Shown piece by piece: positions 8,649-56,699 of a DNA stretch of 64,000 bases (position 1 is its first letter; each line of letters opens with the position of its first letter). This DNA is from Elusimicrobiota bacterium. Lineage in GTDB: Bacteria; Elusimicrobiota; Elusimicrobia; Elusimicrobiales; UBA9959. The position numbers and the translations under genes were made by a program. The notes below the pieces were generated by a model. It was given only the letters and a program-made list of their open reading frames with translations. It searched no databases and had not been told where the DNA came from. The stretch covers positions 4,365-68,364 of the forward strand of contig JACQPH010000067.1 of the NCBI GenBank assembly GCA_016207645.1, read 5' to 3'.

Positions 8649-8660
8649 GTGTTTTTTCCT

Positions 8661-10478: not shown

Positions 10479-10655
10479 AAAAAAAAGCCGCGCCTTACAG
10501 CGCGATCAGTAGTGATTTTTGCCGGGAACCGAAGGACTTCCGCTCAGGCCAGCCGGACCGTCTATATTATTATTTTAGCATTTTCCGGGCGGCTAAATTA
10601 TATCGCGCGTCCTTTTTATATAATTATGCGAGACGGTTTAGTCATGGAGGTCCCT

Positions 10656-34932: not shown

Positions 34933-35011
34933 TCACCTCCCCCCCCTTTTTCCACAGGTAATATATTATCTACAATCTGAATACTGTTTTCATAACGGAT
35001 GAGGTGACAAC

Positions 35012-36883: not shown

Positions 36884-36903
36884 AGGCCGCGGCGCTAAAA
36901 GCG

Positions 36904-36939
36904 GAAATCCCCGATCTCTCATCGGGGATTTCTGCTTTT
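36904..36939 (+). terminator. Intrinsic terminator after the OPT gene
   Basis: GAAATCCCCGAT - CTCTC - ATCGGGGATTTC followed by TGCTTTT. Confidence 0.7.
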
Positions 36940-37021
36940 CCGCACTTACAGAAAATAGCTTTAAGTGGCTTTCTGTCATTGAAGCCCTGCATCGCCAGCG
37001 CCGGCAGCGGTGCGCGAGAAG

Positions 37022-37150
37022 ATGAGCGCATTGTGCCGCGAGTACGGCATATCCAGAAAAACGGGGTACAAATTCCGGGACAGGTACCGGTTGTGCAGCG
37101 CCACAGGGCTATTACTGCACGATAATTCTCACCGGCTTGGAAGAAAAAGG
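37022..37150 (+). pseudogene. N-terminal remnant of an IS481/IS3-like transposase (HTH segment only)
   Basis: MSALCREYGISRKTGYKFRDRYR..GLLLHDNSHRLGRK resembles the HTH start of IS481-type transposases (xLCRxFGISRKTGYKW..RY...GL.GL.DRSRRP). No integrase core follows, and the frame runs antisense into the pbpC 3' end. Confidence 0.4.
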
Positions 37151-39535
37151 CGCGTCAGGAAGTCTTGCCTGTATAGTACGCTCTCCGGAAGTGAGCGTAA
37201 GGCGCACCGTATAGGGATAGTCCGCAACCTTGAACGGCTTGCCGTCGACATACCAGACCAGTTGCGGAACAACGGGATCGACGACGGCCCTCAAGGCCAG
37301 CGTTGACTGCTCTTCAGGCGTTTCAGGGTCGCGAATCAGACTCAAACCGTTTTCAGGGGAGATGATGCTCACTTGAATTTTCTTACCGCGCGGCATAAGC
37401 GGCGTTTCCTCCGGCCCCGGCGCGAACAACGCCAGGTCATCCGGTCTTTTGGGCGGCTCGCTCAGTCCGGCCGCTTTTGCCCACTCGGCGTACCGGGGAG
37501 GCAGGTCTACAAAGGTCTTCACGGTTATGAACTCACGGGGCGTTGCGGACGATGCCTGCCCCCCCGTGCGCATGTCCGCGGCGATCCGGACATGAGCCCG
37601 GCAGTGGTTGACGGGGTGTTCCGTGGGCCTGAACCACTCAAGGGAAACCCGGTCGCAGGCGTCCGTTGCCAGGTCGCCGGTCAGCGCACAGATGCGCGCC
37701 GCTTTAAAGCCCCGGGGCGGCGGGAATGACAGGTCGTGCAGGCCTGCCCGCTGATCTGCATGAAGAGTCAGCAATATGTTTTTTACCAGTTCCGCCGCGG
37801 AGGTGGAGCCGGTCAGGTGGTTCATGGGCTGAAAATCCGGGTCCCCCACCCATACACCCACGAGATACCGGACCGAGAACGCCAGCGCCCAGGCGTCGCG
37901 AAAACGGGACGACGTACCGGTTTTGATCGCCACTGGAAAAGGAAATTCGAGCGCGCCCATGCGTGAGAATCCCGGCATACGGCCCAGCGGATCGGACAAA
38001 AACAGCGCGAGCTGCCTGGTCGTATTTTCGGACAGGACGCGTCGGGATACCGGTTTCACCTGCCCCTCGAACCAGAGCAGGTTGTCCAGGCGGCCCTCTC
38101 GTGAGAGCACGGAATAAGCCTGTACCAGCTTTTCCAGCGTAACCGGGAGGTTGCCGATAGACATGCCTACGCCGTACCGGCTTGCGGGCTCAATGCCGTT
38201 GTGCAGGCCGAGGGTGCGGAGAAAATCATAGCCTTTTTCAATACCGATCTTCTCAAGGAGCGCCGCGGCGGGGACGTTGCGGGAATTGGCTAGAGCGATT
38301 CTGGGCAGTACGGGCCCCATGAACAGGGCGTCGGCGTTCACAATCCCGCCCGGGCCGCGCTGCAGGTCGTCAAGAATGGTTGAGGGCGTTATCTCGCGCG
38401 ATTCCAGGGCGAAGGCGTAGAAGAACGGCTTTAAGGCGCTGCCCGGCGATCGCGGGACAGCGGCGTAATCAATTGCGCCTGAATGGTTTTCGTCAAAATA
38501 ATCGGTGGAGCCGATCCAGGACCGTATCTCGTTGCTTTCCCGGTCAACGATAATAGCCGCCGCGTTCCTAGCGCCCGAGGCGTCCCATTTCCGCACGGTC
38601 TCGTACACCAGGCCGCTCATGGCATTCTGCAGATCCAGATCGAGCGTGGTCGTGACAAGGCGGCCCGCCTGCGGCGAAAGCCGCGCTGACCTGTCCTTCA
38701 ATATCTGATCCATTCGCAGCAAAGCATGCATAGCCTGTTCAGGCCTGATGCCCGGGCGCGGAACAGGAAGGTCCGAGATCTGGAAACAGGCTAGTTCGTA
38801 TTCCTCCCGGCTCATCGCTTTGTCGCGGTACAGGATGTCGAGAATGCGTTTACCCCGGAGGGCCGCGCGCCTCTTCCCCTCGCCGGTAAAAGGGTTCATG
38901 TGGTTCGGGGCCTGGGGGATCGCGGTCAGAAAAGCGGTTTCAGCCCAGCTGAGATCGTCAACAGGTTTGTCGAAGTAACGGCGCGCGGCATAGGCGATGC
39001 CGTGGACCCGGTTCCCGTAGGGGACGATGCGCAGATAGTGTCTCAGGATATCCTCTCGGCTGCGCCGCGCCGTGAGGATGAGCGCCGTCAGCGCTTCCAC
39101 GGCCTTGCGCAGATAGCCGCGGGAGCCCGGGTTCTGCATACGGCTGACCTGCATGGCGATCGTGGACGCGCCGGACGAACGTTTCAGATGAATGGCGTTC
39201 TGGCACATTGCCCTTACGATCGCAAGGACATCCACGCCGGGATGGTCCCGGAACCTGCGGTCTTCCACGGCGAGCGTTGCCGTCATGACGCGCGGGGGCG
39301 GCGCTGCCAGCTCCCAATAGCCGTACTCGCCGTCGGGCGGCGCGCCGGCCTCGCCGAGAAATCTGCCGTGCCGGTCACGCAAGAAATAGGTGGAGTCAGG
39401 CGAAACCAACCGGGCGCGCGAAGCCGCGATCACGGCGAGCAGGACGATAACGGACGAAAGGACCGCTCCCGCGAAGGCAAAACATATAAACTGTCGTCGG
39501 ACAAAAAGGTTACGCATACGCTGCTGATATCTCAT
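37112..39535 (-). CDS. pbpC: Penicillin-binding protein 1C (glycosyltransferase + transpeptidase + PBP1C C-terminal domain)
   Basis: GT51 motifs EDRRFRDHPGVD and GASTIAMQV. Transpeptidase motifs SPGSALKP (SxxK), SRN and KTGTS. 807 aa. Immediately downstream of the alpha-2-macroglobulin gene. Confidence 0.9.
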   Translation of the reverse strand: MRYQQRMRNLFVRRQFICFAFAGAVLSSVIVLLAVIAASRARLVSPDSTYFLRDRHGRFLGEAGAPPDGEYGYWELAAPPPRVMTATLAVEDRRFRDHPGVDVLAIVRAMCQNAIHLKRSSGASTIAMQVSRMQNPGSRGYLRKAVEALTALILTARRSREDILRHYLRIVPYGNRVHGIAYAARRYFDKPVDDLSWAETAFLTAIPQAPNHMNPFTGEGKRRAALRGKRILDILYRDKAMSREEYELACFQISDLPVPRPGIRPEQAMHALLRMDQILKDRSARLSPQAGRLVTTTLDLDLQNAMSGLVYETVRKWDASGARNAAAIIVDRESNEIRSWIGSTDYFDENHSGAIDYAAVPRSPGSALKPFFYAFALESREITPSTILDDLQRGPGGIVNADALFMGPVLPRIALANSRNVPAAALLEKIGIEKGYDFLRTLGLHNGIEPASRYGVGMSIGNLPVTLEKLVQAYSVLSREGRLDNLLWFEGQVKPVSRRVLSENTTRQLALFLSDPLGRMPGFSRMGALEFPFPVAIKTGTSSRFRDAWALAFSVRYLVGVWVGDPDFQPMNHLTGSTSAAELVKNILLTLHADQRAGLHDLSFPPPRGFKAARICALTGDLATDACDRVSLEWFRPTEHPVNHCRAHVRIAADMRTGGQASSATPREFITVKTFVDLPPRYAEWAKAAGLSEPPKRPDDLALFAPGPEETPLMPRGKKIQVSIISPENGLSLIRDPETPEEQSTLALRAVVDPVVPQLVWYVDGKPFKVADYPYTVRLTLTSGERTIQARLPDAPFSSKPVRIIVQ

Positions 39536-39579: not shown

Positions 39580-42500
39580 TTACTCCCCGGCCTTGCTTTT
39601 CACCAGGACCTTCGCCCCATTCGACAGCCCGAAAACCGCCGCATCGTACATCATCTCCGCCTTGGCGCCGGGCTGGATGAAAGTTCCGGCAACGGTCGCC
39701 CTGGTCCTGAAATAGAAATCATACGTCCCGGCCGGAAGCACATTGTAATAGAACGCCGCCTGATCGTCCTGATAGGATAAATCGGGGGGGCTGAGGGTCT
39801 TATTTCCCGCGGGCGCCGCCTCCGGCGCCGCCGTCCGGAGATCAGGGTTCAGCGGTTCCATGCCGGCCGCGAGCGGCGCGCTCACAGCCACATAATGGCG
39901 CTCCTTGGGATTCACGACCTGCACATGCTCTTCAACGACGTCCCCGACCGCGAAGGTCTGCGTCGTGCCCGCTTCGGTCAAGGGGAACTTCACGGGCGGC
40001 GCGTCTTTCCTGACCAGGAGCAATTCCCGTGTCACCACGAAACCGCTGCTCTGCGCCGCCACCCTGCTGCCATCCTCGGCGGGAATATAGGACGTGTCCA
40101 CGCGCACGGCGATCGGCCGCGGGCCTGCATTGCTTTGCAGGACCGCTTCCCCCGCGCCTGTACCGGTTCCAGATACAAAGCCCAGCGGGAGGTCCGGCCC
40201 CAGGCGGATCGTCTGTTCTTTTCCGTCGAGCGTGACGCGGACCCGGGCTTCTTTGGCGCCGGAATAGGGCGGCCTCAGTATTTCCGACAACGCCAGAAGC
40301 GCTTCGGCATTCGCGTTAGTGGTCCCCCACCCGTCGTCCTGGCCGAGCGTTACAAGGGAATCAACGAGCAGCGGAAGCCGCTGGTTCTTCGCATCGTAGC
40401 GCGCAACAGCCCGTGTCATCTGCGCGATCGTGCGCGTTTCGGTCGGCAGGATGAGATCGTTCCGCGTCGGATTTTTCTCCTGCAAGCCTCCGTACATTTC
40501 CCGGCCCTGGTACAGGCGCACCACGATACCGTCCCAGAGCGCTTTTTCGAGCTGCGCCGCCGTTGACGAATCCTGCTCCGCCAAGGCGAAGGAATAGAGG
40601 ACCGTCGCTATGCTTTCCAGGTTCAGGAACTGCGCTTTTCTCGCCAGCTCGGCGGCGTAGGCTGAGTTGTATTTGCCCGCCCGGGTCAGGGCAAGGAGCG
40701 CCCACACCCGCTCGGCAAATGATTCTCCGTCTATGAACCGGCTGTAATCCGACCGCAGGGCCCGTTCAAGGGAGTTCGTAAGCCGGCCGAGGATCTTTTC
40801 ATCTATCGTAAAGCCGGCTTCTTTTGCCTCCACCAGGAACTGCAGGGTCCAGGCCGTCAGGCTGACATATCCCCGTGATCCCGGCCAGAACGCGACCTGG
40901 CCGTCCCCGTCGATCACCGTGGGGATCAGGTTCAGGACCTCGCTCACCGACTGTTTCATCTCCCTGTCCGAACCCTCCTGTTTCAGCAGCGTCCGGAACT
41001 TCCGCAACGCCATGTACACGCGGGCGCGGCTGAGCTGCTGTTCCGTGCACCCATAGGGATAGTGCATGAAGAAATCTAATCCCGCCGCCATCTTGATAAG
41101 GCCCGGCTGGTCCGAGAGCAGCACCGAGCGCGTAAGCGTGCCGGGCCGGACGGTTTCCTCCACCGCGGCAATGACGAGCGGCTCCGAAGACTTAAGCTCC
41201 GCGAACATCCTTTTCGATACCCTGCCCCGGTCCTCGCGGAGCGGCAGCCTGACCTCGAAGGCGTCCTTTGCATTATCCGAATTCCTGCGCACACCGACGG
41301 TAAACGTCACGTCCTGGAGCGCCGGCCTGCCCTCGGCGGTATAGGCCGGGGAAGCCGCTTCCACGGGGAATTCGATGCGCAGCGGCTTGCTCCCGGTCCA
41401 TTGTATGTCCTGCTTCGCGGGGCCGTTGATCTTCAAGCCCTGCACTTTATACTCTGTCTGCCCGGGCCCGTCATGTCCTTCCACGATCCTGCTGATCGCC
41501 GCCGCCGTGAATACGTCTCCGGGCCGCACAAAGCGCGGCAGGGCCGGCTGCACGATGAGCGGCAACCGCACCGCCAGATGTCCCACGGCATAGCCGAACC
41601 GCTCGGGGCCGGCTGCGGCCTTGGCGCGCAGTTTGAAGTTCGTCAAGTCGTCGGAAAGCGTGATCTCCACGACCGCCTTCCCGTCGGGACCGATCGTGAT
41701 GAGCGGATTGTAGTACGGCACGGTCTTAAAGTTCTTGCGCACCGTAACTTTATCCAGCAGCGGCTCCGCCGCGCCCTCGTCGCCGCCGGGGTTTTCCGCA
41801 AAGGGCAGACTGCCTAAGGCCAGGTTGCGGGAATCATGGACCTTGAGAAAAGAGTTGACCTGCCTGATGAAATCAGGCACCGGATCGAGGCGCTGTTCCT
41901 TGCCCAGGGACAGCACGGCCTGGTCGACGAGCCAGAGCGTCACCTCTCCGGACAAAGGCCCGCCGGAAGGGTCTTTAAGCGAGACGGCAACCTTGATCTT
42001 TTCTCCCGGCCGGGCCACGGGCGGATATTCGAGCGCCAGCTTCAACTGTTGCGCCAGGGGATTAACGTCTAGCCACGCAGTTGCCGCCATGGTTTCCGGC
42101 TTGCCCGCATCCATGCCGCCGGCCGGAGCGGGACCGGCGCCGGCCAGCCTGCCGCGCATCAGGATAAAGTGGACCGGCAGGCGCGGCGCATAATTGCCTT
42201 CGATCGGATGGGAAAAGACGGCCACGCCTTTGTCGACGTCAAGCCATTGATACTTGTTGCCGTCGGGCGTTTCGACTATGGCAAGAGCCCTGGCTTTCTG
42301 GAACGGACTCTGAAGAACGATCCTGGCGGTCATGCCGGGATCGTATTTTGCCTTATCAGGCGTCACGGTGAATACGCGCGTGAAAGGCTTGGGCCAGGCT
42401 ACGCGCTCGTCCCCGCCGGCATACAGATCGACGCGTACCACCTGCGCGCGGTCCAGCTTGTCGTGCGCTTCCAGTTCTACGATGTACACGCCGGCTCGGG

Positions 42501-45420
42501 GGACCGGGAACGTCACCGTCACCGGTTCAGCGGCGCTGGTGATCGTATTCTCGGAAACCTTTTCGTCGACCACGTCGGTCACGTAGCGGGCCACGCCGTC
42601 GGAAAAATCGCTGGCTTTGAGCGCCGAGTGCCACTCCCGCCGCAGAAGCCGCACCGTCACCTCCTTGCCCGCGAGCAGCGCGTCATCAGGCCCCGTGACG
42701 ATGATCTCCGGGGAGATCTCTTTTGCCCGCTCGATATAGCGCGGAACCTTCAGCCCGAGCACAAAGGCGGGCAGCGCGGAGATGGATTTCGAGGCGCTTA
42801 CGGTCTGATCGTCAGCCCCGGTGACCGTGGCCTCCACCAGGTAGGTCCGCGGCTGCGCGGTCAGCTCCAGCGCGGGATTGAGCAGGACCCCCGCCGAGCC
42901 GTTCTCGTCCGTCGTGTCCTGCTTCTCCAGACGAGGCGACGCCTGGAACCGCTCGGTCCGCGAAAAACGTCCGTCCGATGAGTAGAGGAATCCCTCCCGC
43001 TTCTTCGGCGTCCATGCCAGCGGAAACTGCGTCACGCGCCATTCTACGGGCTGGCCCCCGACCTTGCCGCCCGCATAATAGGAGGCCGTAAGTTTGACCT
43101 CGAATTCCTTGTCCAGCGACGTCTGGTCCGGGCCGTGCAAGTCAACTTCAAAGAGCGGGAGCCGGTAAGCCTCCAGCTGGAAGGTGACCCGGCCGTAGCT
43201 TTCCGTGCGGTCCTGGTTTTCAAGATGGGCCGAATATGTTCCCGTGGGAAGGTCTTTTTCCGAGAAGGCATGGTAAAAGCTGCCGAGCTCGGTCAGGACC
43301 GCGGGATATTTCCACGATATCTCGCCCGGACCTTCGACGATCAGCCAGCCTGCCGCCCTGACCGGCGTGAGACGCCCTTTTTCCCGCTTGCGCAGGTATC
43401 CTTTGATATGCACTTCCTCTTCGGGCCGGTACATGGGCCGTTCCGTGAAGATATGGCTCACTATCTGCGGTTGTGCCCCCCGGCCGGCAAGCGATTCCTG
43501 CGTCCATTGCAGCCAGGCCGACCGGTCAACGGACCATTGGTTGTCGTAATAGACATCAGGCGGGTTCGCGGGGTCCAGCACGAGCAGGTCTTTGTCTTTC
43601 TCCACCGTGATCCGCCGTACTGTTCTCTGCTCGCGGGAGGGATCGCGGCCCGGCGCGCGCCAGCGGAATACGCCTTCCCCGTCAGTGGTCCCCTCGGCCA
43701 GGGTCGTCCAGGATGTCCTGCCGCGATCGTACAGGGTCCCTTCGACGCGCACACGGGCATTGGGAACAGGCTGGGCCGATTGGAGCGACGTGACGATATA
43801 TCTGACCGCATCGGGTTCTTCTACCGTAGTGAGCGACAGATCCGTGACCTGCAGCCGCATCCACGACCTTCTGCTTCCCGCGGCGACGTCGCGCAAGCCG
43901 ATGAGATAGGCGCCCGGCCGCTCATGACCGGAAAGCCTTGCCAGGTGCGGCGTAAGATCGAGGCCGAAGGAAGCGGAACCGCCTTCCTTTTTGAGCGGCA
44001 GCGGAACGAGCGCCGAGACTGGCGGCGATCCCAGGATGGAGATCTGGCGCGCCAGTTCGCCGGCGCCGGCCGATTGATCCGGCGCGCTAAAAGGCATGGG
44101 CTCTTCGCCGGGTCCTGGCGGACGGCTGCCGTCATCCGTTTCCAGCGGCTGACCGGTGAAAGGCCAGAACGACCGGTCGAGCGGCGGCAGCGGATATATA
44201 CGCAGATCCACGCGCTCTTCCCCTCTGCCTTCGACGGGGATCATCTGCTTGCCGAACCGTTCGGCGATGCCCTGTCCGGCCCTCAGCCGGACATAGCTTC
44301 GTTCGCGGGGGAAATACACGAACACCTCGCTCGCGCCTTTCATCTCAAGTTGCTTCCCGCGCTGGTCCCTGACCGGCGTAGGCGATAGCGACACCCGGTA
44401 TAGCGTGTCACGGCGAAAGTCGCCGGTTATGATCAGCCTGCTTCCTTCGAGCCGGTAGGAGAGTTTGGCCACCGCGGGGGAAAACCTGACAAGGTTTCTT
44501 CCCGTCACCACCAGGGCGTCATCCGCAAGGTCCGGGGAAGCGGAAAATTCGGCCACAATGTCCAGGGCCGAGGAGTCGCCGCGTATGGCCTGCTCCTGCG
44601 TATAATGCGAACCTTCGGGGGTAATGGGGTATCCGCTCCGTCTGGTTCCCAGGGACACTACCCGGAAAGGCTCGGCGGTGGAAAAAGAAAAATCGCGAAA
44701 GGATTCCGTATCCTGGTCGGCGAGCGCCAGGCGCATGTGGACGTTCGTCCTGATGCCGGGGGGAATGGGCTCTTTGAGCGTCAGCACGTACGAGGCTTTT
44801 TCAGCGCGGGACCGGCGCTCCACTACCTTGACGGTAAAGTCGTTCTTCGCCAGCCACCGCGACGCAGCGGAGCCCACGCCGGGCAAAGGGCGCAGTTCGA
44901 GCGATATCATGCCTGCCAGGGCCCCGGGATCGAGCGGCTCGGCGAAAGTCAGCGTGATGTTCTTCACCTGTTCCAGTCCCTCGGCCAGGTCCGCCGGGTC
45001 CGTCAAGACCGGCGCTTCCATCAAGGTAAAGAGCGCGGTTGTTTTTTTATCCGCGGTCCAGATGAAGCGCGACAGCGACGGCCATGGTTCGGAGGGCTGG
45101 AATTGGAGCGTCCTGCCGTCAAGCCAGCGGTAGGAGCCCGGATGATCCGTATCCACGGTGACGAATCTTTCGGGCTGATCTTCAGGACCGCCTTCCTTCG
45201 GCCCTCGTTCCTGGGAAAAGAAGATCGTTACCGGATCCCAGCGCCGGAGAAAATGCTCCGGGATAACCGTGGTTTCCGTAACGAACTCCGGCCGGATGTT
45301 AGTTGCCGCCTGCCGTGCTTCACTGCGGGCGACAACGGGCGCGCTGAGGATCAACAGGGCCGGAATAATTCCTGAAAGACCGCTGTTCCTGGCTGCTCTC
45401 GAAAATACTGTCGTGTTCAT
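39580..45420 (-). CDS. Bacterial alpha-2-macroglobulin family protein with intact thioester motif
   Basis: YPYGCTEQ thioester site (CTEQ codons at 41038-41049), a long series of MG-type beta-sandwich regions, and a signal peptide (MNTTVFSRAARNSGLSGIIPALLILSAPVVA). ATG 45420 has GAAGGAG upstream. The ORF-track start at 45450 is an alternative. Confidence 0.9.
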   Translation of the reverse strand: MNTTVFSRAARNSGLSGIIPALLILSAPVVARSEARQAATNIRPEFVTETTVIPEHFLRRWDPVTIFFSQERGPKEGGPEDQPERFVTVDTDHPGSYRWLDGRTLQFQPSEPWPSLSRFIWTADKKTTALFTLMEAPVLTDPADLAEGLEQVKNITLTFAEPLDPGALAGMISLELRPLPGVGSAASRWLAKNDFTVKVVERRSRAEKASYVLTLKEPIPPGIRTNVHMRLALADQDTESFRDFSFSTAEPFRVVSLGTRRSGYPITPEGSHYTQEQAIRGDSSALDIVAEFSASPDLADDALVVTGRNLVRFSPAVAKLSYRLEGSRLIITGDFRRDTLYRVSLSPTPVRDQRGKQLEMKGASEVFVYFPRERSYVRLRAGQGIAERFGKQMIPVEGRGEERVDLRIYPLPPLDRSFWPFTGQPLETDDGSRPPGPGEEPMPFSAPDQSAGAGELARQISILGSPPVSALVPLPLKKEGGSASFGLDLTPHLARLSGHERPGAYLIGLRDVAAGSRRSWMRLQVTDLSLTTVEEPDAVRYIVTSLQSAQPVPNARVRVEGTLYDRGRTSWTTLAEGTTDGEGVFRWRAPGRDPSREQRTVRRITVEKDKDLLVLDPANPPDVYYDNQWSVDRSAWLQWTQESLAGRGAQPQIVSHIFTERPMYRPEEEVHIKGYLRKREKGRLTPVRAAGWLIVEGPGEISWKYPAVLTELGSFYHAFSEKDLPTGTYSAHLENQDRTESYGRVTFQLEAYRLPLFEVDLHGPDQTSLDKEFEVKLTASYYAGGKVGGQPVEWRVTQFPLAWTPKKREGFLYSSDGRFSRTERFQASPRLEKQDTTDENGSAGVLLNPALELTAQPRTYLVEATVTGADDQTVSASKSISALPAFVLGLKVPRYIERAKEISPEIIVTGPDDALLAGKEVTVRLLRREWHSALKASDFSDGVARYVTDVVDEKVSENTITSAAEPVTVTFPVPRAGVYIVELEAHDKLDRAQVVRVDLYAGGDERVAWPKPFTRVFTVTPDKAKYDPGMTARIVLQSPFQKARALAIVETPDGNKYQWLDVDKGVAVFSHPIEGNYAPRLPVHFILMRGRLAGAGPAPAGGMDAGKPETMAATAWLDVNPLAQQLKLALEYPPVARPGEKIKVAVSLKDPSGGPLSGEVTLWLVDQAVLSLGKEQRLDPVPDFIRQVNSFLKVHDSRNLALGSLPFAENPGGDEGAAEPLLDKVTVRKNFKTVPYYNPLITIGPDGKAVVEITLSDDLTNFKLRAKAAAGPERFGYAVGHLAVRLPLIVQPALPRFVRPGDVFTAAAISRIVEGHDGPGQTEYKVQGLKINGPAKQDIQWTGSKPLRIEFPVEAASPAYTAEGRPALQDVTFTVGVRRNSDNAKDAFEVRLPLREDRGRVSKRMFAELKSSEPLVIAAVEETVRPGTLTRSVLLSDQPGLIKMAAGLDFFMHYPYGCTEQQLSRARVYMALRKFRTLLKQEGSDREMKQSVSEVLNLIPTVIDGDGQVAFWPGSRGYVSLTAWTLQFLVEAKEAGFTIDEKILGRLTNSLERALRSDYSRFIDGESFAERVWALLALTRAGKYNSAYAAELARKAQFLNLESIATVLYSFALAEQDSSTAAQLEKALWDGIVVRLYQGREMYGGLQEKNPTRNDLILPTETRTIAQMTRAVARYDAKNQRLPLLVDSLVTLGQDDGWGTTNANAEALLALSEILRPPYSGAKEARVRVTLDGKEQTIRLGPDLPLGFVSGTGTGAGEAVLQSNAGPRPIAVRVDTSYIPAEDGSRVAAQSSGFVVTRELLLVRKDAPPVKFPLTEAGTTQTFAVGDVVEEHVQVVNPKERHYVAVSAPLAAGMEPLNPDLRTAAPEAAPAGNKTLSPPDLSYQDDQAAFYYNVLPAGTYDFYFRTRATVAGTFIQPGAKAEMMYDAAVFGLSNGAKVLVKSKAGE

Positions 45421-45480: not shown

Positions 45481-48400
45481 TCATTCCCCGGTTTCTCCCT
45501 CGCCATTCTCTTCTCCGTATTCCGGTTCAGCAGCAGGCGTCGGGCTGTCAGATGTCTGTTCACCCTGACTTTCGTAACCCATGTCCTGCGAGCCCCTGCG
45601 GCTCGAATACGCGGCAGGCATTTCCGCTTCAGGGGAGAGATATCTCGTGATCTCCTCAGGCGGAGGTCCCGAGTCGGGAGCCTTAAGCCCCACAAGCGCC
45701 GGCCGCACTTTTACCGGCGCCGCGGCGTCGGGGGCGCGCAGTTTCATCAGGTAGGGGCCCGGTTTCAATCTGAGCATCTGGGCCACGCCCTTGCCCAGGA
45801 CCGCGCCCGCGCTGTTCAGAATTTCCATATCGATGCCGTCGGAATCAGCCTTCACGCCGGCGCCGATCATGCCTTCCTGCCGGACCGTGAACGAAAAGAG
45901 CCTCGCTGAACCGGGCGCGAGCAGCGCCTCGGGCCCCAGACCTTCGTCCGTCGGGGTGACGCTTGAACCTGAAATGGAAACCTGTCCCGACATGCCGCCT
46001 CCGGCAAAAGCGCGCAGCCGAAGCTCCGCCGAGCCCCCGGGCAGATAGGCGTCAAGCGTGACTCCCCGGGAATGGACCTCTACTTCGGGCGTCTTTTCGC
46101 CCCGGGCCAGGTACGTTACGAGGGGTGCGGCGCTGCGCACGTGAAGCATGACGGGGTTTGCCGCCTCGATCCGGTACGCGCGAAGTTTTCCGTCAAGAGG
46201 CAGGAGAGCGGGTAATGTCACCGCTGTCCTGTCCGGCTTTTCGCTTGCAGCCCAGAGATCCGCGGCTTCCTCCCCCGGTCTGTCCAGCCAGGCCAGCAGC
46301 GCGCCGGGGCCGTGCTCAACGACCAGCGTGCCGCCCTGTTCGCCGATCTCCATGTCATTGGCCGCGGAGACGGCGCCGGTCTTGTCCGTAAAGACCGCGT
46401 TCCTGCCGCCCCTGACATGCAGGGTCCTGCGGTTTTCAATGGGCGTTTTTCCCGCGGCAATGGAAAGCCGTGATCTTCCCGAGTTGAGCATTATCCGCTC
46501 AAAGGGCTGCCCGATCGCAAGAGGGGCGGTGAACAGCGCATCGGCAAGGGGGGCGTGATCGATGGAAAAATAGTCCTCCCCTTCCCGGGTATGAAGCAAA
46601 AGCAGGCGCTGGGCATCGGTTTCGCAGGTTTCCGTAAAGGCTTTCCCTTCAGCCCAGTGAACGCTGGCGACGGTGCCGTCTTTCAGCAGCGCGGCGACAA
46701 GGGCTTCTCCCAGGGAAAGCTGTATTCGTTTTTTGCCCTGCGGGAGTTCGTACAGCCGCGCCTTCTTCCCCTCTATCGCGCCATGCAGACCGGCCTTGCC
46801 GGAAGCGGTTTCAGGCGCGTGAAAACCTAACTGCATAACACGCGCTTCAAATGGTTCATCAACGGGAGAAGCGGCCCAGAGCCGCGCAACGGGATTTTTC
46901 GGCTGAAGCGACAGACTGAGGGAGCCGTGCTCGCCGACCATAAATTGGCCGGTATTCACCGGCTCGTTCCCGCCCTGCTCGATGAGCTCGACAGCCGGCC
47001 GCCCGGCGCGCGCTGAAGCGATGACGAGAACAGGACCCTGGCCGTCGCTGGCAAGATCGCACAGCATCTTTTCACGGCCCCGCATCCTGAGTTGAACGGC
47101 TTTATTCACGCCCGATCCGAGTCCCAGGCGCTCCGCCCGGGCAACGGGAACCGGGCCGCGCGTCGCTGTTTCCCCGGTGATCCAGACAAAGCCCGGCTGA
47201 ACAGGCAGGAAGTTTTCCGGCTGCTCGCAGGCGCGGAGTACTCCTGCCGACCAGCGCAGGCTTCGGAATTCTTCCGGTATGCGCAGCAAGCCGCCGCGTT
47301 CAAACCTCACTGCCGCGGCGGCAATGGCTGTCCTGGCCCCCTGGGCAAGGGACAGGTCTATTCCCCTTTTCAGATCCCCTTCGGTGAACTGCGGCGGTGA
47401 TACGAACAGTGCGGAGAGTTCCACTGACGTAGCGCGCCGGTCCATGGACCAGAGGCGCAGGCGATACCGGACATTTGACGGCGGCGCCAGGGGCTCGCGA
47501 AGCGGCACCTCAAGGCGCGCGTCGCGTCCGGATGCCGATCCGATGGTTTTCCAGCCGTCCTGTTCAGCGACTTCAACGGCCATCCCGATGTTTTCCGGCG
47601 CCCGTGCGGACAGCATCAGGAGCTCTCCCTGGGCGGGCAGTGTGAGCGGAAAAAGCTGGACGGAATCAGTCAGCGTTATGCTCGCGTTCGCCGGCAGGAG
47701 GAGCGCTTTTTTCCCCTCTTCTTTAGGGACTCTTACCGATACGGTGCAGGCGCCCTGTCCGGGCCCGACGGGTTCGACATGCAATCTGTAATTTCCCGGT
47801 TTCAGCGCCGCGGAGATATGGAAATTCCAGTCATCGGGCCGGTCGTCGTTTTCAGCGATCAAAAGCCCGTCTTCGGTCGTCAACCGCGCCTTCACGTCAA
47901 CGCCGCCGAAAGACGACAATTCCACCAAACCCGCCCGGCCGATCGCAACAGGAACTACGGACGGCGCGCCGACATCGCGGCTGAGCCCGGCCATCAGGGG
48001 TACAGGCCGGACGGCCACGCGGTAAGCAGCCTGGTTGTTGACGCGCACTGAGGCCGCGTCGATGCGGTACGAACCCGCCTGCAGCCTGCCCTGCCAGCCG
48101 CGCGCAGGCGGGATGAAGGCGGCGCGTTTCGAAGTGCCGCCGGGATTGATCCTTAAAAGCTCGCCCTGCATCTCTCCGGTCAGTTCTACCGAGACCTCGC
48201 CGTCAGCTGGGAGTTCGAAATTCCACTGGTCGGGCCGGCGCTCTTTTTGCGATTCGGGCTCCCTCCAGGTATGATCCACGGCAACGGCCAGCGGCAACCG
48301 GTGCGGGCCGTGTCCCTTGAACCGGCGCGGCGGCTGCACCGGTTCGATCAATGTCACGAGCCGGGCGTCCGTGTTTTCCGGCAGGAGGATCAACCGGTAC

Positions 48401-50880
48401 CTGCCCTTCTCGAAAGTGCGCGTGAGGTCCGCATCGCTGTTGGGAGTCACGACCGGCCAGCCGTCCTTGTCTTCAAGCCGGCATTTTGGCGTCCTTGCGA
48501 GACCGAAGGCCCGGACCCGGTATTCGCCGGGGTTGGTGATGATGAATTGATATGCCGCCGCTTTTCCCGCTTCCAGCGACAGGCGCGCAGGCGTGCGGCT
48601 AGTGAGAAAACCGGCCTGGATCAAACCGCTCTTGTCCATGATAAGACCGAGATGTCCTTTTGACCGCCCTTTGCCCGCGACAGTAACCTGGTAATCGCCT
48701 TCATGCAGGTACTGCCTGATAAAGAAGTTCCTGCCTTTGCCGTTCTCCGATTCCCGCACGAGCCGGGGCGTGGTCCTGCTGCGAAGATCGCCTTCCGTTG
48801 CCAGAAGCCCAGTGGACTGAACCTGATAGAGGGCTGATTTGTCCGCCTGAAGGTTGAAGGTCAAATTAGAATTGCGCTCCAGGTCGAAAAAGAGCGGTTT
48901 GCCGTCCGTCAGTACCGGAAAATTCGGGAGGCTGTCGAGTACCGCCTGCGAAAGGGCGGGCAGCGGGGTCCCGGCGCTCAACCTGCGCGGTTCCAGGAAG
49001 AGAGCGTAATTGATCGTGTCCTTTGCCGTTGATCGCACGGATACGGAGTGTCTGCCCGTCCCCATGCTGTACATTTTCTGCCAGGGCCCATTGTCCACCG
49101 ACAGGTCCATGTACGAACCGTCTTCAACTTCCGCCCGGAGCGTACCTTCTTCGGAAACCAGGAACGGAACGGTCACGGTTTCGTCGGGCCGCTGCGTCAT
49201 GGGCAGCGGATCAGCCAGGTTCAACGGCAGGGAGCGGATCACGAGCCCTGTTCTGACTTCGGGTTGCCGGTTCATGTGCATTGTGTACCAGCTATAACGA
49301 TTCAGTGAAACCTTCGGGAAACGAACGGCGGCCCGGACCGGCGGCGCGATTTTTCCTTTATCCGGGGCGAGCTTTCCCCATACCCAGCTGACCCAGGATG
49401 CGGGACGGATGATCAGATCCATTATCCCCTTCTTCTCAGGTTCAATGGTCAGTACATAGTAGCCGGCATCGAGGTCCCACGTAGAGCCCCCGGGCCGGGT
49501 TTTCGGCTTTGCATAATACATGGGCACTGACGTGAAAAATGGTTCTATGCGAACACGGGCTTCAACCCCTTGCGAGAGGACCTGGTATGCGCCTTTCGCG
49601 TTGATCTTGAGAAAGAGCGTAAGCGGATCCAGCAGATTTGCGCGGCGCGAATATCCAGTTGCCTGGTCCAGCTCGATCGTCTGCTCGAACAAGGGCCGCG
49701 TGCTGTACGTGTCTGCGCCCGACACCAGGACAGCGGTAGAGTCTACCGAGTCCTGCGGATGACCCGAGTGAACGCTCGATATCCAGTATTCGCCCGTCCC
49801 TTGAAATGAATAGCGGTCATTAGATTCAAAGTGCTGGAATACATATGGTGTGCCGGACTCGCCGGTGATGACGACAAGGTGCTTTGCGCTCTGGTTTCCC
49901 TCCGTCAGCAATTCGGCCACGGGGGGGGAGGAGTTCTTCCTGATATTGCTGTCTGGTCCGTTGTTGCTGAATGGATCGCTTTTATTGAACCAGCCTGCCT
50001 GAAGCGACAACTCGCGCGCTTCCGCCAGTTCTACCCTGAAGTATGTGCTCAAACCGGGAACGATAAAGCGGTCCGTCCCGAACGGGCTGAGCGTGAACCG
50101 TTTCCGGGTCACCGAACCCAGTTCGGGAATGCCGTGCCTCAGGTAGAAAGGATGAAGGCCGCTGTCTTCGGCCCAGGGGAGGGCAAGACCGCCGTATGCG
50201 GAGAGAAGATAGAGTCCCGGATCAAGCGCGACGGCGAGGCGGCAGACCCGCAGAGGCCGGCCTGTTATCGGCTGCACTGTTGTGATAACCGGTGCCGCAT
50301 CCACCAGCCAGGCGCCGTCTTTCCACAACCGCATATCAGCCAGACTCCGTCCCGCTGCTTCCAGAAGCACGAGTTTGCGCTCCCTGATTTCAAGCCAGTA
50401 AGACGCCTGTTCAAAATCCTTGAGCTCGGTTTCGTTCAGCTTGTATTCAATAAGCGCCGGCAGCTGCGGGGCATTCCGGTCCTGAAACGGATGCGCTTCC
50501 AGGCGCGCGCTCCCGGACGCCTTTTCATGTCCATGAATGACAATCTTATATTCGCCCCGCTCCAGAAAGAGATCGAGCCTGCCGTCCCGCTCGCCCGCAA
50601 CGCCGGAAATAGTTCCAGGTCCGGCCATGCGGTCAATGAGCTGAAGTCCCGTTCCTTGCTCGCTCCTGACGGTAACGGCATAACGTCCGAACTTTTTAAT
50701 CGTGAGAATGGCTTCCTGGCGGCCCCGGGCGGGAATATCGGATCTGCTCAATACGGCGGAAAAGTCCGGCGACTCCGCATGCAGAGCGGCAGGGGATAAG
50801 CAATTCAGCAGGAGAAGAACCGGTACGACATAACGCAGGACGGATAACCTTAGGCGATGTACCCGGCAATTCACCTTCAT
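45481..50880 (-). CDS. Giant secreted repeat protein (about 1799 aa), family unknown
   Basis: The uninterrupted ORF is the first gene of the alpha-2-macroglobulin/PBP1C operon. ATG 50880 is preceded by GGAGG at a 6-nt spacing. It has a signal peptide (VVPVLLLLNCLSPAALHA), a recurrent 'G-x-Y-x-hydrophobic' beta-sandwich-like module and an acidic C-terminal tail. Confidence 0.75.
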   Translation of the reverse strand: MKVNCRVHRLRLSVLRYVVPVLLLLNCLSPAALHAESPDFSAVLSRSDIPARGRQEAILTIKKFGRYAVTVRSEQGTGLQLIDRMAGPGTISGVAGERDGRLDLFLERGEYKIVIHGHEKASGSARLEAHPFQDRNAPQLPALIEYKLNETELKDFEQASYWLEIRERKLVLLEAAGRSLADMRLWKDGAWLVDAAPVITTVQPITGRPLRVCRLAVALDPGLYLLSAYGGLALPWAEDSGLHPFYLRHGIPELGSVTRKRFTLSPFGTDRFIVPGLSTYFRVELAEARELSLQAGWFNKSDPFSNNGPDSNIRKNSSPPVAELLTEGNQSAKHLVVITGESGTPYVFQHFESNDRYSFQGTGEYWISSVHSGHPQDSVDSTAVLVSGADTYSTRPLFEQTIELDQATGYSRRANLLDPLTLFLKINAKGAYQVLSQGVEARVRIEPFFTSVPMYYAKPKTRPGGSTWDLDAGYYVLTIEPEKKGIMDLIIRPASWVSWVWGKLAPDKGKIAPPVRAAVRFPKVSLNRYSWYTMHMNRQPEVRTGLVIRSLPLNLADPLPMTQRPDETVTVPFLVSEEGTLRAEVEDGSYMDLSVDNGPWQKMYSMGTGRHSVSVRSTAKDTINYALFLEPRRLSAGTPLPALSQAVLDSLPNFPVLTDGKPLFFDLERNSNLTFNLQADKSALYQVQSTGLLATEGDLRSRTTPRLVRESENGKGRNFFIRQYLHEGDYQVTVAGKGRSKGHLGLIMDKSGLIQAGFLTSRTPARLSLEAGKAAAYQFIITNPGEYRVRAFGLARTPKCRLEDKDGWPVVTPNSDADLTRTFEKGRYRLILLPENTDARLVTLIEPVQPPRRFKGHGPHRLPLAVAVDHTWREPESQKERRPDQWNFELPADGEVSVELTGEMQGELLRINPGGTSKRAAFIPPARGWQGRLQAGSYRIDAASVRVNNQAAYRVAVRPVPLMAGLSRDVGAPSVVPVAIGRAGLVELSSFGGVDVKARLTTEDGLLIAENDDRPDDWNFHISAALKPGNYRLHVEPVGPGQGACTVSVRVPKEEGKKALLLPANASITLTDSVQLFPLTLPAQGELLMLSARAPENIGMAVEVAEQDGWKTIGSASGRDARLEVPLREPLAPPSNVRYRLRLWSMDRRATSVELSALFVSPPQFTEGDLKRGIDLSLAQGARTAIAAAAVRFERGGLLRIPEEFRSLRWSAGVLRACEQPENFLPVQPGFVWITGETATRGPVPVARAERLGLGSGVNKAVQLRMRGREKMLCDLASDGQGPVLVIASARAGRPAVELIEQGGNEPVNTGQFMVGEHGSLSLSLQPKNPVARLWAASPVDEPFEARVMQLGFHAPETASGKAGLHGAIEGKKARLYELPQGKKRIQLSLGEALVAALLKDGTVASVHWAEGKAFTETCETDAQRLLLLHTREGEDYFSIDHAPLADALFTAPLAIGQPFERIMLNSGRSRLSIAAGKTPIENRRTLHVRGGRNAVFTDKTGAVSAANDMEIGEQGGTLVVEHGPGALLAWLDRPGEEAADLWAASEKPDRTAVTLPALLPLDGKLRAYRIEAANPVMLHVRSAAPLVTYLARGEKTPEVEVHSRGVTLDAYLPGGSAELRLRAFAGGGMSGQVSISGSSVTPTDEGLGPEALLAPGSARLFSFTVRQEGMIGAGVKADSDGIDMEILNSAGAVLGKGVAQMLRLKPGPYLMKLRAPDAAAPVKVRPALVGLKAPDSGPPPEEITRYLSPEAEMPAAYSSRRGSQDMGYESQGEQTSDSPTPAAEPEYGEENGEGETGE

Positions 50881-51405
50881 AAACACCCTCCCTGAGGCTT
50901 TTGCGAAGCAGTCCCCTGCGATTTAAAATATCATCGGGCGGCCTTTGTCGCCATTTCAGGATGTCAAATATTTCTGTTGAGGCAGTTCTTGATTGGCCGA
51001 AAGAACCAGAAAGGGGTTTTTTCAGCAGACTGAAAACAGGTTGCCGTCCCCAATTTCCCCCCAATTTCCCAAATACTTTTCCCTGTCTACTTACTTTGTA
51101 GTTGCAAATACTGTCAGGTATCTAAACATATTTTAGCCGCGACAGTCTAATTTTCCGCTTTTAAAAGGCACCCATTTATCCCACCCCGCCCCGGGCGATG
51201 GAATCCCTGCCACCAAGATTAGGACCAATTGGTATTAAGGTGAATCTGTCTTTATTATGAAATTCCCCCCGAAGAACTGAATCTCGCGGGGGAAAGTTCG
51301 GAAAAGAAGAAAATTGGCTCCGTGACCAGGACAGTGCATCCTCCGAAGCGAGGCAGGATAGCGTAGTCGCGCGAACCGGGAAGTGGAACGCCTGGACCGA
51401 TCCCG

Positions 51406-51443
51406 GAGAAAAATTCAGGCCCCTTACGGGGCCCAAATTTTTT
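51406..51443. terminator. Hairpin terminator directly 3' of tRNA-Gln (T-runs on both strands)
   Basis: GGCCCC-TTAC-GGGGCC (51418-51433), flanked by A5 upstream and T6 downstream on the + strand. Confidence 0.5.
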
Positions 51444-51514
51444 CTCCGGGACTAGGATTCGAACCTAGAAAAGGGGATTCAGAGTCCCCCGTGATACCGT
51501 TTCACCATCCCGGA
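51444..51514 (-). tRNA. tRNA-Gln (anticodon CUG)
   Basis: Hand-folded cloverleaf: acceptor TCCGGGA/TCCCGGA (U1-A72), D stem GTGA/TCAC, anticodon stem GGGGA/TCCCC with loop CTCTGAA, T arm CTAGG-TTCGAAT-CCTAG, discriminator G. CCA is not encoded. Confidence 0.9.
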
Positions 51515-51566
51515 ATATTTGTTATTATATATTTTTCGCGGCCGTTAGCAAAATCCCGGGGGGAAC

Positions 51567-54764: not shown

Positions 54765-56699
54765 GTGAAAATCCCGATAGCGTTTATCTTAACCCTTCTG
54801 CTTATGCCCGCATACATTAAAGCCGCCCCGGCGGAGGCCGCGGCGCCGCGCTCCTGGACCCTGGTGCATTTCCTGCCCGGAGATTTCAAGGACGCCGGCA
54901 CGAAGAATTTCATCCCCGCTTCTTTCCCCGAAGGCGTTTTCACGGTGGAGGACTCAAGCCGCCCCGCAGTGCTCACCTCGGCGCAGCTCGACGCCGCTTT
55001 CCCTTTCGACGAGCTGCTGCTCTCGGCGGACGCGATTTTTCCCGGCGGCGGCGGGCTGGAGGCCGAAGCCCAGGTAAGGACGGCCGATGGCTGGAGCCCC
55101 TGGTTCAGCTTCGGGAAGTTCAACGCGGCCGGCGGCGGGGCCAGCGCGGCCCCGCAGCAGAACGAGTTCGGCGCCCTCGAGATAGACAAGCTGAAGCTGA
55201 AGAAAAAAGCCTCGGCCCTGCGCTACCGCTTCACGCTGACCGCCGCGGGCAGGCCCGCCGTGCTGCGCCTGGCGGCCGTTTCCTATACCGACTCGGGCGC
55301 TCCTTATTCCCCCGCCGCCGCCTACAAGCCCGCCGGCTTCAAAGCGCGGAAGCTCTCCCTGCCGCGCCGCTCGCAGATGCTGCAGCAGGTGAATTACGCC
55401 GGCGATATCTGCAGCCCCGTCTCGCTCTCGATGGCACTGTGCGGCCTGGGCCTGAGCGCCGAACCGCTGGAAACCGCCGAAGCCGTGCTCGACACGGCGC
55501 AGAACATCTACGGCAACTGGTTCTTCAACACGGCCCATGCCGGGACCCGCGGGCTTTACGCCTTCACGGCCCGCCTCAATTCACTGGAAGAAGCCGGGAC
55601 TTTCCTGGACGCCGGCGCGCAGGTGGTGGCCAGCCTCACCTACGGCCCCGACGAGCTGAAGAACTCCCCCCTCAAAAAGACGAAAGGCCACCTGCTGGTG
55701 CTGGCCGGCTTCACCGCCAAGGGCGACGTGATAACCCACGACCCCGCCGCGCCCGACGAAGGTACCGTAGAGCGGGTCTACGACAGGGCGCAGTTTGCCC
55801 GGGCCTGGCTGAAGAACAAGTTCGGAACTTCATACATAATAGCGAAGGACCTGAACCGCTTCCTGGCTGTGAAGGAAAGGGCCGCGGAACTCTTTTCCAT
55901 GCCGCCGGGCCCGGGCGACGGGGAGCGCGAAAAGCTGCGGGAAAGCCAACTTCTTTTCAACGAGCGGGTAGAGCTCCTGGAGGTATCAGGGCCCTGGGCC
56001 CGCGCCCGGGCCGCCGAGCAGACCAGCCTGCTGCCCGACGATAAGACGCTGGCCCCGTACGAGGGCTGGCTGGAGCTGGACAGCCTGGCCTTCAGCATCC
56101 CGGCCCCGGACACGGCCGTGATAAAGACCAAGACGGCCAAAGCCGGCGGCCTGGAACTTTCGCTGGGCGTGCGGCTGCGCGTGATAGACGGCCCCGGCGG
56201 GGCGAAGGCCTTCCCGCCCGGCGGACCGGCGCTGAACCTCTCCGAAAAAGACCTCAACCGGCTGCCGCGCAAACCCGCGCCCGCCGGACTGCGCCCCGCG
56301 ATACTAGAGACGGCCCGCTTCTTCCTCGGGGACAAATATTACTGGGGCGGGCGCAGCGCCTGGGGCATAGACTGCTCCGGCCTGGTGAACCTGGCCTACC
56401 GCGCCTGGGGCCTGGAACTGCCGCGCAACGCCGACGACCAGTTCGCCGCCTCCAGAAGCGTCAGCCGCGAGAACCTGAAACCGGCCGACCTGATCTTTTC
56501 CGCCGAGGCCTCGAAACCCGGCTTCGTCAACCACGTGATGCTCTATGCCGGCGGCGGGAAACTGATAGAGGCCACCGGCGAGACCAACTCCGTAAGGGAG
56601 ATCTCCTTCGCGGAGAAATTCGGCGCCGACTTCAAAAAGGCGAAGAACGGCATGGTGGCCGGCGGAAAAAAGATCTTCTTCAGGAAAGTTATCAACTAA
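54765..56699 (+). CDS. Secreted two-peptidase protein: C39-like cysteine peptidase domain + SH3-like linker + NlpC/P60 (C40) domain
   Basis: GTG start with a signal peptide. The GDICSPVSLSMAL / GHLLVLAGF pair resembles a papain-like C39-type domain. The C-terminal YYWGGRSAWGIDCSGLV ... NHVMLY is classic NlpC/P60. Confidence 0.8.
   Translation: MKIPIAFILTLLLMPAYIKAAPAEAAAPRSWTLVHFLPGDFKDAGTKNFIPASFPEGVFTVEDSSRPAVLTSAQLDAAFPFDELLLSADAIFPGGGGLEAEAQVRTADGWSPWFSFGKFNAAGGGASAAPQQNEFGALEIDKLKLKKKASALRYRFTLTAAGRPAVLRLAAVSYTDSGAPYSPAAAYKPAGFKARKLSLPRRSQMLQQVNYAGDICSPVSLSMALCGLGLSAEPLETAEAVLDTAQNIYGNWFFNTAHAGTRGLYAFTARLNSLEEAGTFLDAGAQVVASLTYGPDELKNSPLKKTKGHLLVLAGFTAKGDVITHDPAAPDEGTVERVYDRAQFARAWLKNKFGTSYIIAKDLNRFLAVKERAAELFSMPPGPGDGEREKLRESQLLFNERVELLEVSGPWARARAAEQTSLLPDDKTLAPYEGWLELDSLAFSIPAPDTAVIKTKTAKAGGLELSLGVRLRVIDGPGGAKAFPPGGPALNLSEKDLNRLPRKPAPAGLRPAILETARFFLGDKYYWGGRSAWGIDCSGLVNLAYRAWGLELPRNADDQFAASRSVSRENLKPADLIFSAEASKPGFVNHVMLYAGGGKLIEATGETNSVREISFAEKFGADFKKAKNGMVAGGKKIFFRKVIN

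Follow-up and report, generated by a model that had tools for sequence, protein, structure and literature searches.

The 64,000-nucleotide stretch of contig JACQPH010000067.1 analysed here (Elusimicrobiota bacterium, GenBank assembly GCA_016207645.1; hereafter the window) carries on its minus strand a gene for a very large protein, here called BIG, which is followed by the genes for a thioester alpha-2-macroglobulin and for the penicillin-binding protein PBP1C. The results are best explained if BIG is a Sec-exported, periplasmic protein of ~190 kDa and the dedicated partner of a clade of thioester macroglobulins that are not lipoproteins. Probably, BIG is a so far undescribed third component of a macroglobulin-based defence system of the cell envelope. 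We put the probability that it serves the macroglobulin as scaffold or partner in the periplasm at about one half, and that of any specific sub-mechanism much lower. The original prediction, made from the sequence alone, had described a giant, apparently non-enzymatic array of β-sandwich modules next to a protease trap, and this description was borne out by AlphaFold2 models, Foldseek searches, repeat analysis and the lack of any enzyme-family match.

BIG and the macroglobulin are constantly linked. In 68 out of 68 non-redundant, species-level loci having at least 1.5 kb of sequence downstream of BIG, the gene that comes directly after BIG, in the same orientation, encodes a homologue of this macroglobulin. 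The BIG stop codon overlaps the macroglobulin start by 4 nt in 25 of these loci, a count that is approximate, as gene starts in high-GC genomes were approximated by the first in-frame start and some open reading frames (ORFs) are consequently inflated. Co-translation of the pair is probable. In the reverse direction, four long macroglobulins were picked from the match list of the window macroglobulin itself; each has a large gene without Pfam match directly upstream, and wherever DNA was available, in three of these loci, this gene proved to be a homologue of BIG. From the linkage in both directions, it follows that within this clade the pair is, as judged by gene order, obligate both ways. 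PBP1C comes next in ~48 of 56 loci, is missing from the flank in 7 and lies upstream in one, so that by the same measure it is frequent but dispensable; the macroglobulin, unlike PBP1C, was never absent from the BIG loci examined. The genes flanking the unit vary from locus to locus.

The structure of BIG was predicted with AlphaFold2 in two halves that overlap, using an alignment of 43 sequences for either half. Both models are confident, with a mean predicted local distance difference test (pLDDT) score of 89.8 and a predicted template modelling (pTM) score of 0.78 for residues 1–960, and values of 86.3 and 0.72, respectively, for residues 850–1799, and both consist almost wholly of β-strands, with hardly any helix. 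The confident all-β sandwich array expected from the original prediction is therefore what the structure prediction returns. According to the strand pattern of the models, from which the domains D1 to D16 were delimited (Table 1), BIG is confidently predicted to comprise about 16 β-sandwich domains, most of them eight-stranded, and the models suggest that these are rigidly packed. Conservation is highest in D1–D9, D16 and the C-terminal motif, and is lower in D10–D15. D2 is the most conserved domain, with 31% of its alignment columns at least 90% conserved, whereas the linker at residues 497–513, after D4, is variable and of low confidence. D9 contains an invariant cluster formed by D995, D1012, D1013, D1017, W1018 and N1019, in which the four aspartates and N1019 may constitute a cation site, possibly for Ca2+. 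Close to the end of the chain, P1739, P1740 and Y1747 of the C-terminal motif are invariant or nearly so. The last ~60 residues had been described as an acidic, disordered tail; this holds for the final 49, since their pLDDT is below 50, they contain 13 acidic and two basic residues, and the tail is acidic in 80% of the homologues, yet poorly conserved in sequence.

A recurring two-part signature, an early aromatic strand followed by a late G-x-Y-x-h-x-h strand (h, hydrophobic), had been noticed along the chain. The G-x-Y-x-h-x-h motif occurs ten times in BIG, against 0.54 ± 0.73 times in 5,000 shuffles of the protein, among which the highest count was six. Across 110 homologues each of the ten sites is conserved, with G in no fewer than 97% of them and an aromatic residue in 85% or more. 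All 14 peptides quoted originally were located in BIG, and each of the listed pairs falls within a single predicted sandwich (D1, D4, D6, D7, D8, D9 and D16), the copy considered clearest lying in D9 at nt 47770-47883. Profiles for the individual domains, cut from a 110-sequence family alignment, were compared all against all with hhalign, using 240 reversed-profile comparisons as controls. The repeats are significant by this measure: 10 of the 120 domain pairs outscore the best control, the strongest being D7–D9 (E=6.5e-7) and D6–D9 (E=1.3e-5), and iterative merging of the profiles unites nine domains (D1, D2, D4–D9 and D16), with E-values for the individual joins that range from 8e-8 to 7e-5 and in every case beat the controls of the round. 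D10, D14 and D15 are borderline relatives after merging, and D3, D11, D12 and D13 did not join the family. The claim of many degenerate modules thus stands as regards the array, which is real, but only nine of the ~16 domains are detectably members of one repeat family; their descent from one PPC/CUB-like module (PPC, bacterial pre-peptidase C-terminal domain) is the best explanation. At the DNA level the repeats are too diverged to be seen, as had been stated: the DNA comparison found a single echo of 43 nt with a 72% match (47810-47852 versus 48206-48248). It encodes DDRPDDWNF in D9 and RRPDQWNF in D8, and these RPD.WNF motifs occupy different strands, strand 6 in D9 and strand 2 in D8.

The clearest copy had also been said to closely resemble PPC domains; for the modules, the likeness is real in the fold and marginal in the sequence. 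In Foldseek searches with both halves, pairs of BIG domains matched the tandem collagen-binding domains of ColG (5iku), whose fold is that of PPC, at probability 1.00, with a template modelling (TM) score on the target of 0.34–0.35 for both halves. Further matches at probability 1.00 were pairs of CUB domains (PCPE-1, neuropilin, enteropeptidase), domain 3 of HA70 and the ectodomain of SIDT1. As far as can be judged from the models, BIG modules share the eight-stranded sandwich of PPC, ColG s3a–s3b and CUB domains, and with PPC they also share the order of motifs, namely the early aromatic strand, an acidic loop and the late G-x-Y-h-x-h strand. By sequence, the complete protein has no Pfam match at E≤1, and the ten modules searched in isolation gave no PPC match even at E≤10. 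Nine of 27 relatives match PPC (PF04151) below its gathering cut-off of 25.9 bits, the best with 25.4 bits at D8/D9, where the matches to the N-terminal part of the Pfam model fall in D8. Weak matches in D9, to FDP_fam (DVUA0089/FDP family; E=0.019, 15 bits), the only one from NCBIfam, and to MalQ_N (E=0.046), complete the list. BIG modules are therefore PPC/CUB-like in fold, while their scores do not place them among the Pfam PPC members. They differ from PPC domains also in not being attached C-terminally, or in any other way, to a peptidase domain, and in their number and order, since at least nine diverged copies follow each other in BIG in a constant order, against the one or two C-terminal copies of PPC.

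No sign of enzymatic activity was encountered, in agreement with the absence of a catalytic motif noted originally. BIG contains neither HExxH nor CxEQ; no peptidase domain or motif was found anywhere in it by Pfam, NCBIfam or motif search, NCBIfam gave nothing above threshold, and the family profile had no match at E≤10 among all PDB sequences. None of the PADLOC defence models match BIG, the macroglobulin or PBP1C. The residues conserved in at least 95% of 177 relatives are mainly G, P, W, Y and L, together with acidic and arginine clusters. At this level there is no conserved cysteine, and the only histidine and serines are H857, S990 and S1145; as each of them is in a separate domain, no catalytic set stands out. 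The lone GxSxG sequence of the protein (GRSKG) was considered as a nucleophile and rejected: it is located in a D6 hairpin that joins two β-strands and not in the elbow of an α/β-hydrolase. BIG is hence apparently non-enzymatic.

Several relatives of BIG have gained domains that are associated with the cell wall. Fusions were searched for with the homologue from Dongia as query, with Pfam and with a hidden Markov model built from LprI segments. Many BIG proteins of 1,840–2,010 residues bear an N-terminal LprI/DUF1311 domain, a bona fide PF07007 (34–41 bits, cut-off 22) of the type found in M. tuberculosis LprI and Salmonella ScwA, which covers residues ~20–113 straight after the signal peptide and has four conserved cysteines. 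The segment model detects it in 41 collected homologues, and it is present in 3 of 80 species loci, one of them from a Terriglobia genome; loci L053 and L065 carry BIG proteins of this type, and the RefSeq name of the Dongia protein (P0383; L048, 9497-15178) is 'lysozyme inhibitor LprI family protein'. The BIG of the window differs from these relatives in that PF07007 is absent from it, and stand-alone LprI genes were found neither in the window nor in the other loci. Insertions inside the array occur as well. P0395, P0397 and P0399 contain ~175 additional residues exactly at the D9/D10 junction, which in P0397 and P0399 include an OmpA peptidoglycan-binding domain (PF00691) above its cut-off; P0095 and P0100 have unrelated insertions of 70–85 residues at the same junction, and P0167 and P0169 have ~130–190 residues inserted in the D3 loop (near residues 324–338 of the window protein). 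LprI domains belong to periplasmic, disulfide-bonded proteins tied to the control of peptidoglycan hydrolases, such as ScwA acting on MltD, and they are also part of predicted orphan immunity proteins against lysozyme-like type VI secretion system (T6SS) effectors (PMC7933661, PMC9796082). The cysteines of the ScwA domain form disulfides in the periplasm (PMC7933661). The LprI and OmpA fusions would therefore place BIG in the periplasm beside the peptidoglycan, and the acquired domains give an indication of the site and the target of its action.

BIG belongs to a large and widely distributed family. A word-indexed search returned 423 relatives, the best 120 of which are mostly full-length, and all their source names are 'hypothetical protein'. 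An exhaustive phmmer search with residues 1–1100 against clusters at 50% identity gave 1,247 clusters at E≤1e-3, 677 of them at E≤1e-30, and the best 150 cluster representatives share one collinear layout and, fragments aside, mostly measure 1,700–1,850 residues. When one genome per species was scanned, 354 genomes were found to carry BIG relatives. Among them are genomes of Nitrospirota, Acidobacteriota (Thermoanaerobaculia, Vicinamibacteria, Holophagae and Terriglobia), Binatia, Myxococcota, Desulfobacterota, Alpha-, Beta- and Gammaproteobacteria and Elusimicrobiota, all of which are diderm groups, and that of a cultured organism, Dongia sedimenti R-7. The domain number and order are invariant and the length is fixed among the 177 aligned relatives and the 150 best representatives, an architecture which, judging from these alignments, is unlike that of adhesins with variable repeats. 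The nearest relatives of the window, which was found in groundwater metagenomes, are from groundwater Nitrospirota bins, with 78% identity. The three genes of the unit in L002/L010 (metagenome-assembled genome JBAZKS010000001.1, labelled Elusimicrobiota) are 72–82% identical to those of the Nitrospirota-like window; they are much closer than those of other phyla, which suggests either that the cluster was recently transferred between lineages by horizontal transfer or that the bin is wrong.

The N-terminus of BIG bears a Sec-type signal peptide, the region of which is modelled as a helix at residues 15–27 with low pLDDT. Signal peptides of the signal-peptidase-I type are found at the N-termini of the homologues across the family, which show no conserved lipobox cysteine. 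The ORF as listed spans 45481-50886 on the minus strand and begins with GTG. This codon overlaps the ribosome-binding site AGGGAGGG, and an ATG, at 50880, is found two codons further in; this ATG is likely the true start because the site lies just before it, and the end coordinate given originally agrees with the resulting 1,799-residue protein. Upstream, the unit is bounded by a tRNA gene followed by a hairpin with a T-run, and BIG should therefore need its own promoter, in the region 50894-51417 (−). This leader of ~520 nt has a GC content of ~0.55, compared with ~0.62 for the window, and contains no Rfam family at gathering score. There is no terminator-like site in the 60-nt gap between BIG and the macroglobulin. 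The downstream boundary is a convergent gene for an OPT oligopeptide transporter (35012-36883 (+), 623 residues, E=9e-45), which is overlapped by two minus-strand ORFs without Pfam match (323 and 342 residues; 34970-36979); the plus-strand gene being the real one, the operon ends at pbpC.

Table 1. Features of the BIG operon and of its upstream boundary in the window (aa, residues of BIG unless indicated).
Feature	aa	Position	Strand	Remarks
tRNA-Gln		51443-51515	−	upstream boundary of the unit (boundary region 51418..51515)
GC-rich hairpin and T-run		51418-51433	−	after tRNA-Gln
Ribosome-binding site of BIG		50886-50893	−	AGGGAGGG
BIG coding sequence	1,799 and stop	45481..50880	−	from ATG 50880; equals database entry P0001
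Sec-type signal peptide	1-35	50776..50880	−	...SPAALHA, followed by ES after the cleavage site
D1	38-134	50479..50769	−	8-stranded sandwich; repeat family; GRYAVTV and GEYKIVI
D2	138-252	50125..50469	−	repeat family; GLYLLSA
D3	253-406	49663..50124	−	larger β domain, not in the repeat family
D4	407-496	49393..49662	−	repeat family
D5	514-636	48973..49341	−	repeat family
D6	655-752	48625..48918	−	repeat family; ALYQVQS and GDYQVTV
D7	753-850	48331..48624	−	repeat family; AAYQFII, GEYRVRA and GRYRLIL
D8	862-961	47998..48297	−	repeat family
D9	963-1052	47725..47994	−	repeat family; the copy originally considered clearest
D10-D15	1053-1628	45997..47724	−	six less conserved β domains
D16	1629-1733	45682..45996	−	repeat family; GPYLMKL
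C-terminal motif and short helix	1734-1750	45631..45681	−	...PPDTGPP.EVIR.YL
Acidic disordered tail	1751-1799	45484..45630	−	
Thioester alpha-2-macroglobulin	1,946 (own length)	39580..45420	−	from ATG 45420; second cistron, 60 nt downstream
PBP1C		37112..39535	−	third cistron; transglycosylase, transpeptidase, BiPBP_C; N-terminal membrane anchor

The start codon of the window macroglobulin is preceded by a GAAGGAG site, and the protein has a signal peptide, the domains bMG3, MG2, bMG6, bait-region, A2M and bMG10, and the thioester sequence CTEQ at residue 1468 of the 1,956-residue ORF. C.EQ is present in 54 of 61 linked macroglobulin homologues, and none of 54 linked macroglobulins, that of the window included, has a lipobox. 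The macroglobulin is so diverged that phmmer found no relative in the PDB; a profile of 24 macroglobulins reaches YfhM/ECAM of E. coli and Sa-A2M of Salmonella at E ~1e-24, and the alignment offset corresponds to ~260 extra N-terminal residues relative to Sa-A2M. This extension includes a Big_5-like domain, and the signal peptide is directly followed by a stretch of high conservation (...VVVPDHFLRRWDPVTIFF). The linked macroglobulins are best explained as a distinct, deep-branching clade of non-lipoproteins.

Several loci deviate in detail from the arrangement of the window. BIG and the macroglobulin are found without PBP1C in the flank in L087, L023, L047, L050, L054, L063, L075 and L081, the first of which has a DUF2059 gene (13896-14378) in place of PBP1C, and in L062 pbpC is located upstream of BIG. 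In the distant locus L001, a 77-residue gene with a weak RHH_1 match (15331-15564) stands between BIG and the macroglobulin, in a gap of ~1.2 kb. Apparent BIG–macroglobulin fusions, in ORFs of up to 3,648 residues, were discarded as over-extensions of ORFs in genomes of 70–76% GC.

Two types of bacterial macroglobulin are distinguished at present: Type I, with thioester, lipoprotein and accompanied by PBP1C, and Type II, with no thioester and encoded in the mag operon with accessory proteins. Full-text searches, which did not cover all journals, returned these two arrangements only, and in none of the texts was a giant gene described as a third partner. As in the Type I operon (E. coli yfhM–pbpC, Salmonella Sa-A2M), the gene next to BIG encodes a thioester macroglobulin (CTEQ) that has MG, bait-region, A2M and bMG10 domains, and pbpC follows. 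The operon described here differs from that of Type I by the extra gene in first position and by its macroglobulin, which is ~290 residues longer than ECAM and has no lipoprotein box; by sequence, the neighbouring gene thus shares with Type I the CxEQ and the adjacency to pbpC, and not the lipid anchor. The lipoprotein box of ECAM has been described (PMC3328433), and both ECAM and Sa-A2M are named lipoproteins in their PDB molecule names. The Type II operons (P. aeruginosa magABCDEF, the E. coli yfaS operon), in which a macroglobulin is encoded together with accessory proteins, provide the nearest functional analogy for BIG: MagD depends on partners from its own operon for stability and localisation, and its stability and cleavage depend on MagB (PMC5764988). 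The likeness has limits, as MagD has no thioester, unlike the macroglobulin linked to BIG, and the Mag partners are small, one of them with a membrane helix, whereas BIG is a soluble array of 190 kDa. The Mag/Yfa accessory families are DUF1175, DUF2138, DUF2135 and DUF2300, and BIG matches none of them, having no Pfam match of any kind at E≤1. The locus is thus a three-gene form of the macroglobulin–PBP1C system, in which the extra component belongs to an uncharacterised family with a known fold.

Decoy, bait, scaffold and surface-layer component had been listed as possible roles for the array. The fixed domain count, the linkage to the macroglobulin and the fusions with LprI and OmpA speak for a scaffold or partner in the periplasm and against a surface layer or adhesin, and nothing specifically supports a decoy or bait. 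In the scaffold reading, BIG, the macroglobulin and usually PBP1C would be made from one operon, the first two often with translational coupling. By analogy with MagD and MagB, BIG would bind the soluble macroglobulin and keep it at the peptidoglycan layer, near the membrane-anchored PBP1C, in place of the lipid anchor that is used by E. coli ECAM, and it would supply a large multivalent surface at which incoming lytic enzymes, both proteases and muramidases, are met. The absence of a lipobox from the linked macroglobulins (0 of 54), complementary to the lipoprotein nature of ECAM and Sa-A2M, supports this pattern. Several points weigh against it. The BIG–macroglobulin complex is inferred, and gene linkage alone would also fit a regulator, a chaperone or a second, independent arm of defence. 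The BIG of the window has no anchor and neither LprI nor OmpA domain, so that the tethering idea leans on a few of its relatives; LprI domains, for their part, are not proven to inhibit lysozyme (PMC7933661), and the wording 'rigidly packed' has the support of the pTM values alone.

The alternative that survives best is that BIG is a regulator, lock or chaperone, which would stabilise the macroglobulin, or gate its bait and thioester until the envelope is breached, in the way MagB acts on MagD. It draws on the same obligate linkage and frequent 4-nt overlaps as the scaffold, it has a precedent in the MagB-dependent stability and cleavage of MagD (PMC5764988), and the ~260 extra N-terminal residues of the macroglobulin could be the docking site; we nevertheless consider it rather unlikely, since 190 kDa and 16 domains far exceed what a lock or chaperone requires, the OmpA and LprI gains indicate contact with the cell wall and not control of the macroglobulin, and none of the Mag accessory families shows homology to BIG.

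A more ambitious proposal, which we regard as speculative and unlikely, is that BIG, the macroglobulin and PBP1C form a three-part, complement-like immune complex of the periplasm with BIG as its recognition arm. The PPC/CUB-like surface, sometimes extended by LprI, would bind foreign lytic enzymes at the peptidoglycan (proteases, muramidases, perhaps T6SS or predator effectors) and present them to the thioester trap, while PBP1C would repair the wall. In animals, CUB-domain recognition proteins work with proteins of the C3/C4 family, and a recognition arm of this kind would, if true, make BIG their bacterial counterpart.

That BIG is a free-standing secreted or surface protein, such as an adhesin, a sheet resembling a surface layer or a matrix component, adjacent to the macroglobulin through co-regulation only, is improbable. 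A large β-sandwich array with a signal peptide and an acidic tail would suit such a protein, and PPC and collagen-binding-like folds often bind insoluble polymers. Against this, the number and order of the domains are fixed across phyla, when a variable repeat number would be expected; no anchoring or secretion module was detected, with no autotransporter barrel, RTX, LPXTG or sorting tail above threshold; the fusion partners LprI and OmpA are periplasmic modules; and co-regulation fits poorly with a linkage that holds in 68 of 68 loci and in the reverse test, with overlapping stop and start codons. A sacrificial decoy, either an abundant periplasmic sink for proteases or a bait whose cleavage signals invasion, is quite improbable. 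The gene adjoins that of a protease trap, and the variable linker at residues 497–513 and the disordered tail could be cleaved, but ~1,700 structured, strongly conserved residues in a compact and confident fold are beyond the needs of a decoy, there is no long variable region like the bait of macroglobulins, and nothing found bears specifically on the idea.

Very improbable indeed is that BIG is an extremely diverged paralogue of the macroglobulins or thioester-containing proteins that traps without a thioester: its length is like that of its neighbour and the top whole-chain Foldseek matches include A2ML1, C5, CVF and C4 (E 1e-6 to 4e-8), but their TM-scores of 0.06–0.09 are what generic strings of sandwiches give, the protein has almost no helix and none of the macroglobulin hallmarks (MG ring, bait, helical thioester domain, CxEQ), its Pfam matches to MG domains are stray and sub-threshold, and since the hhalign score of family against family (25.9) is below the reversed control (30.5), BIG is not a detectable paralogue.

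The other neighbours of the unit in the window are unrelated housekeeping genes. Farther away, at 6846-12787 (+), a 1,359-residue ORF without Pfam match abuts the gene of a 620-residue protein with Hint/PT-HINT (pretoxin) and Tim44-like domains, stop and start overlapping by 1 nt, and this may be a locus of the polymorphic-toxin type. Less than 10 kb upstream of BIG there are two genes of the cell-wall hydrolase type, one for a 644-residue Peptidase_C39_2 and NlpC/P60 protein (54765-56699 (+)), followed by that of an SBP_bac_5 binding protein, and the other for a 613-residue Amidase_3 protein (59987-61828 (−)).

Beside Type I and Type II, the BIG locus represents a third arrangement, widespread among free-living, environmental bacteria, in which a soluble thioester macroglobulin is always accompanied by a 190-kDa β-sandwich protein. 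If BIG is the partner of this macroglobulin, it would explain how a macroglobulin without an anchor stays in place, and, by way of the fusions with LprI and OmpA, it would link the trapping of proteases to the defence against muramidases. A large family known at present only as 'hypothetical protein' would also acquire a function, and the cultured carrier Dongia sedimenti R-7 makes the idea testable.

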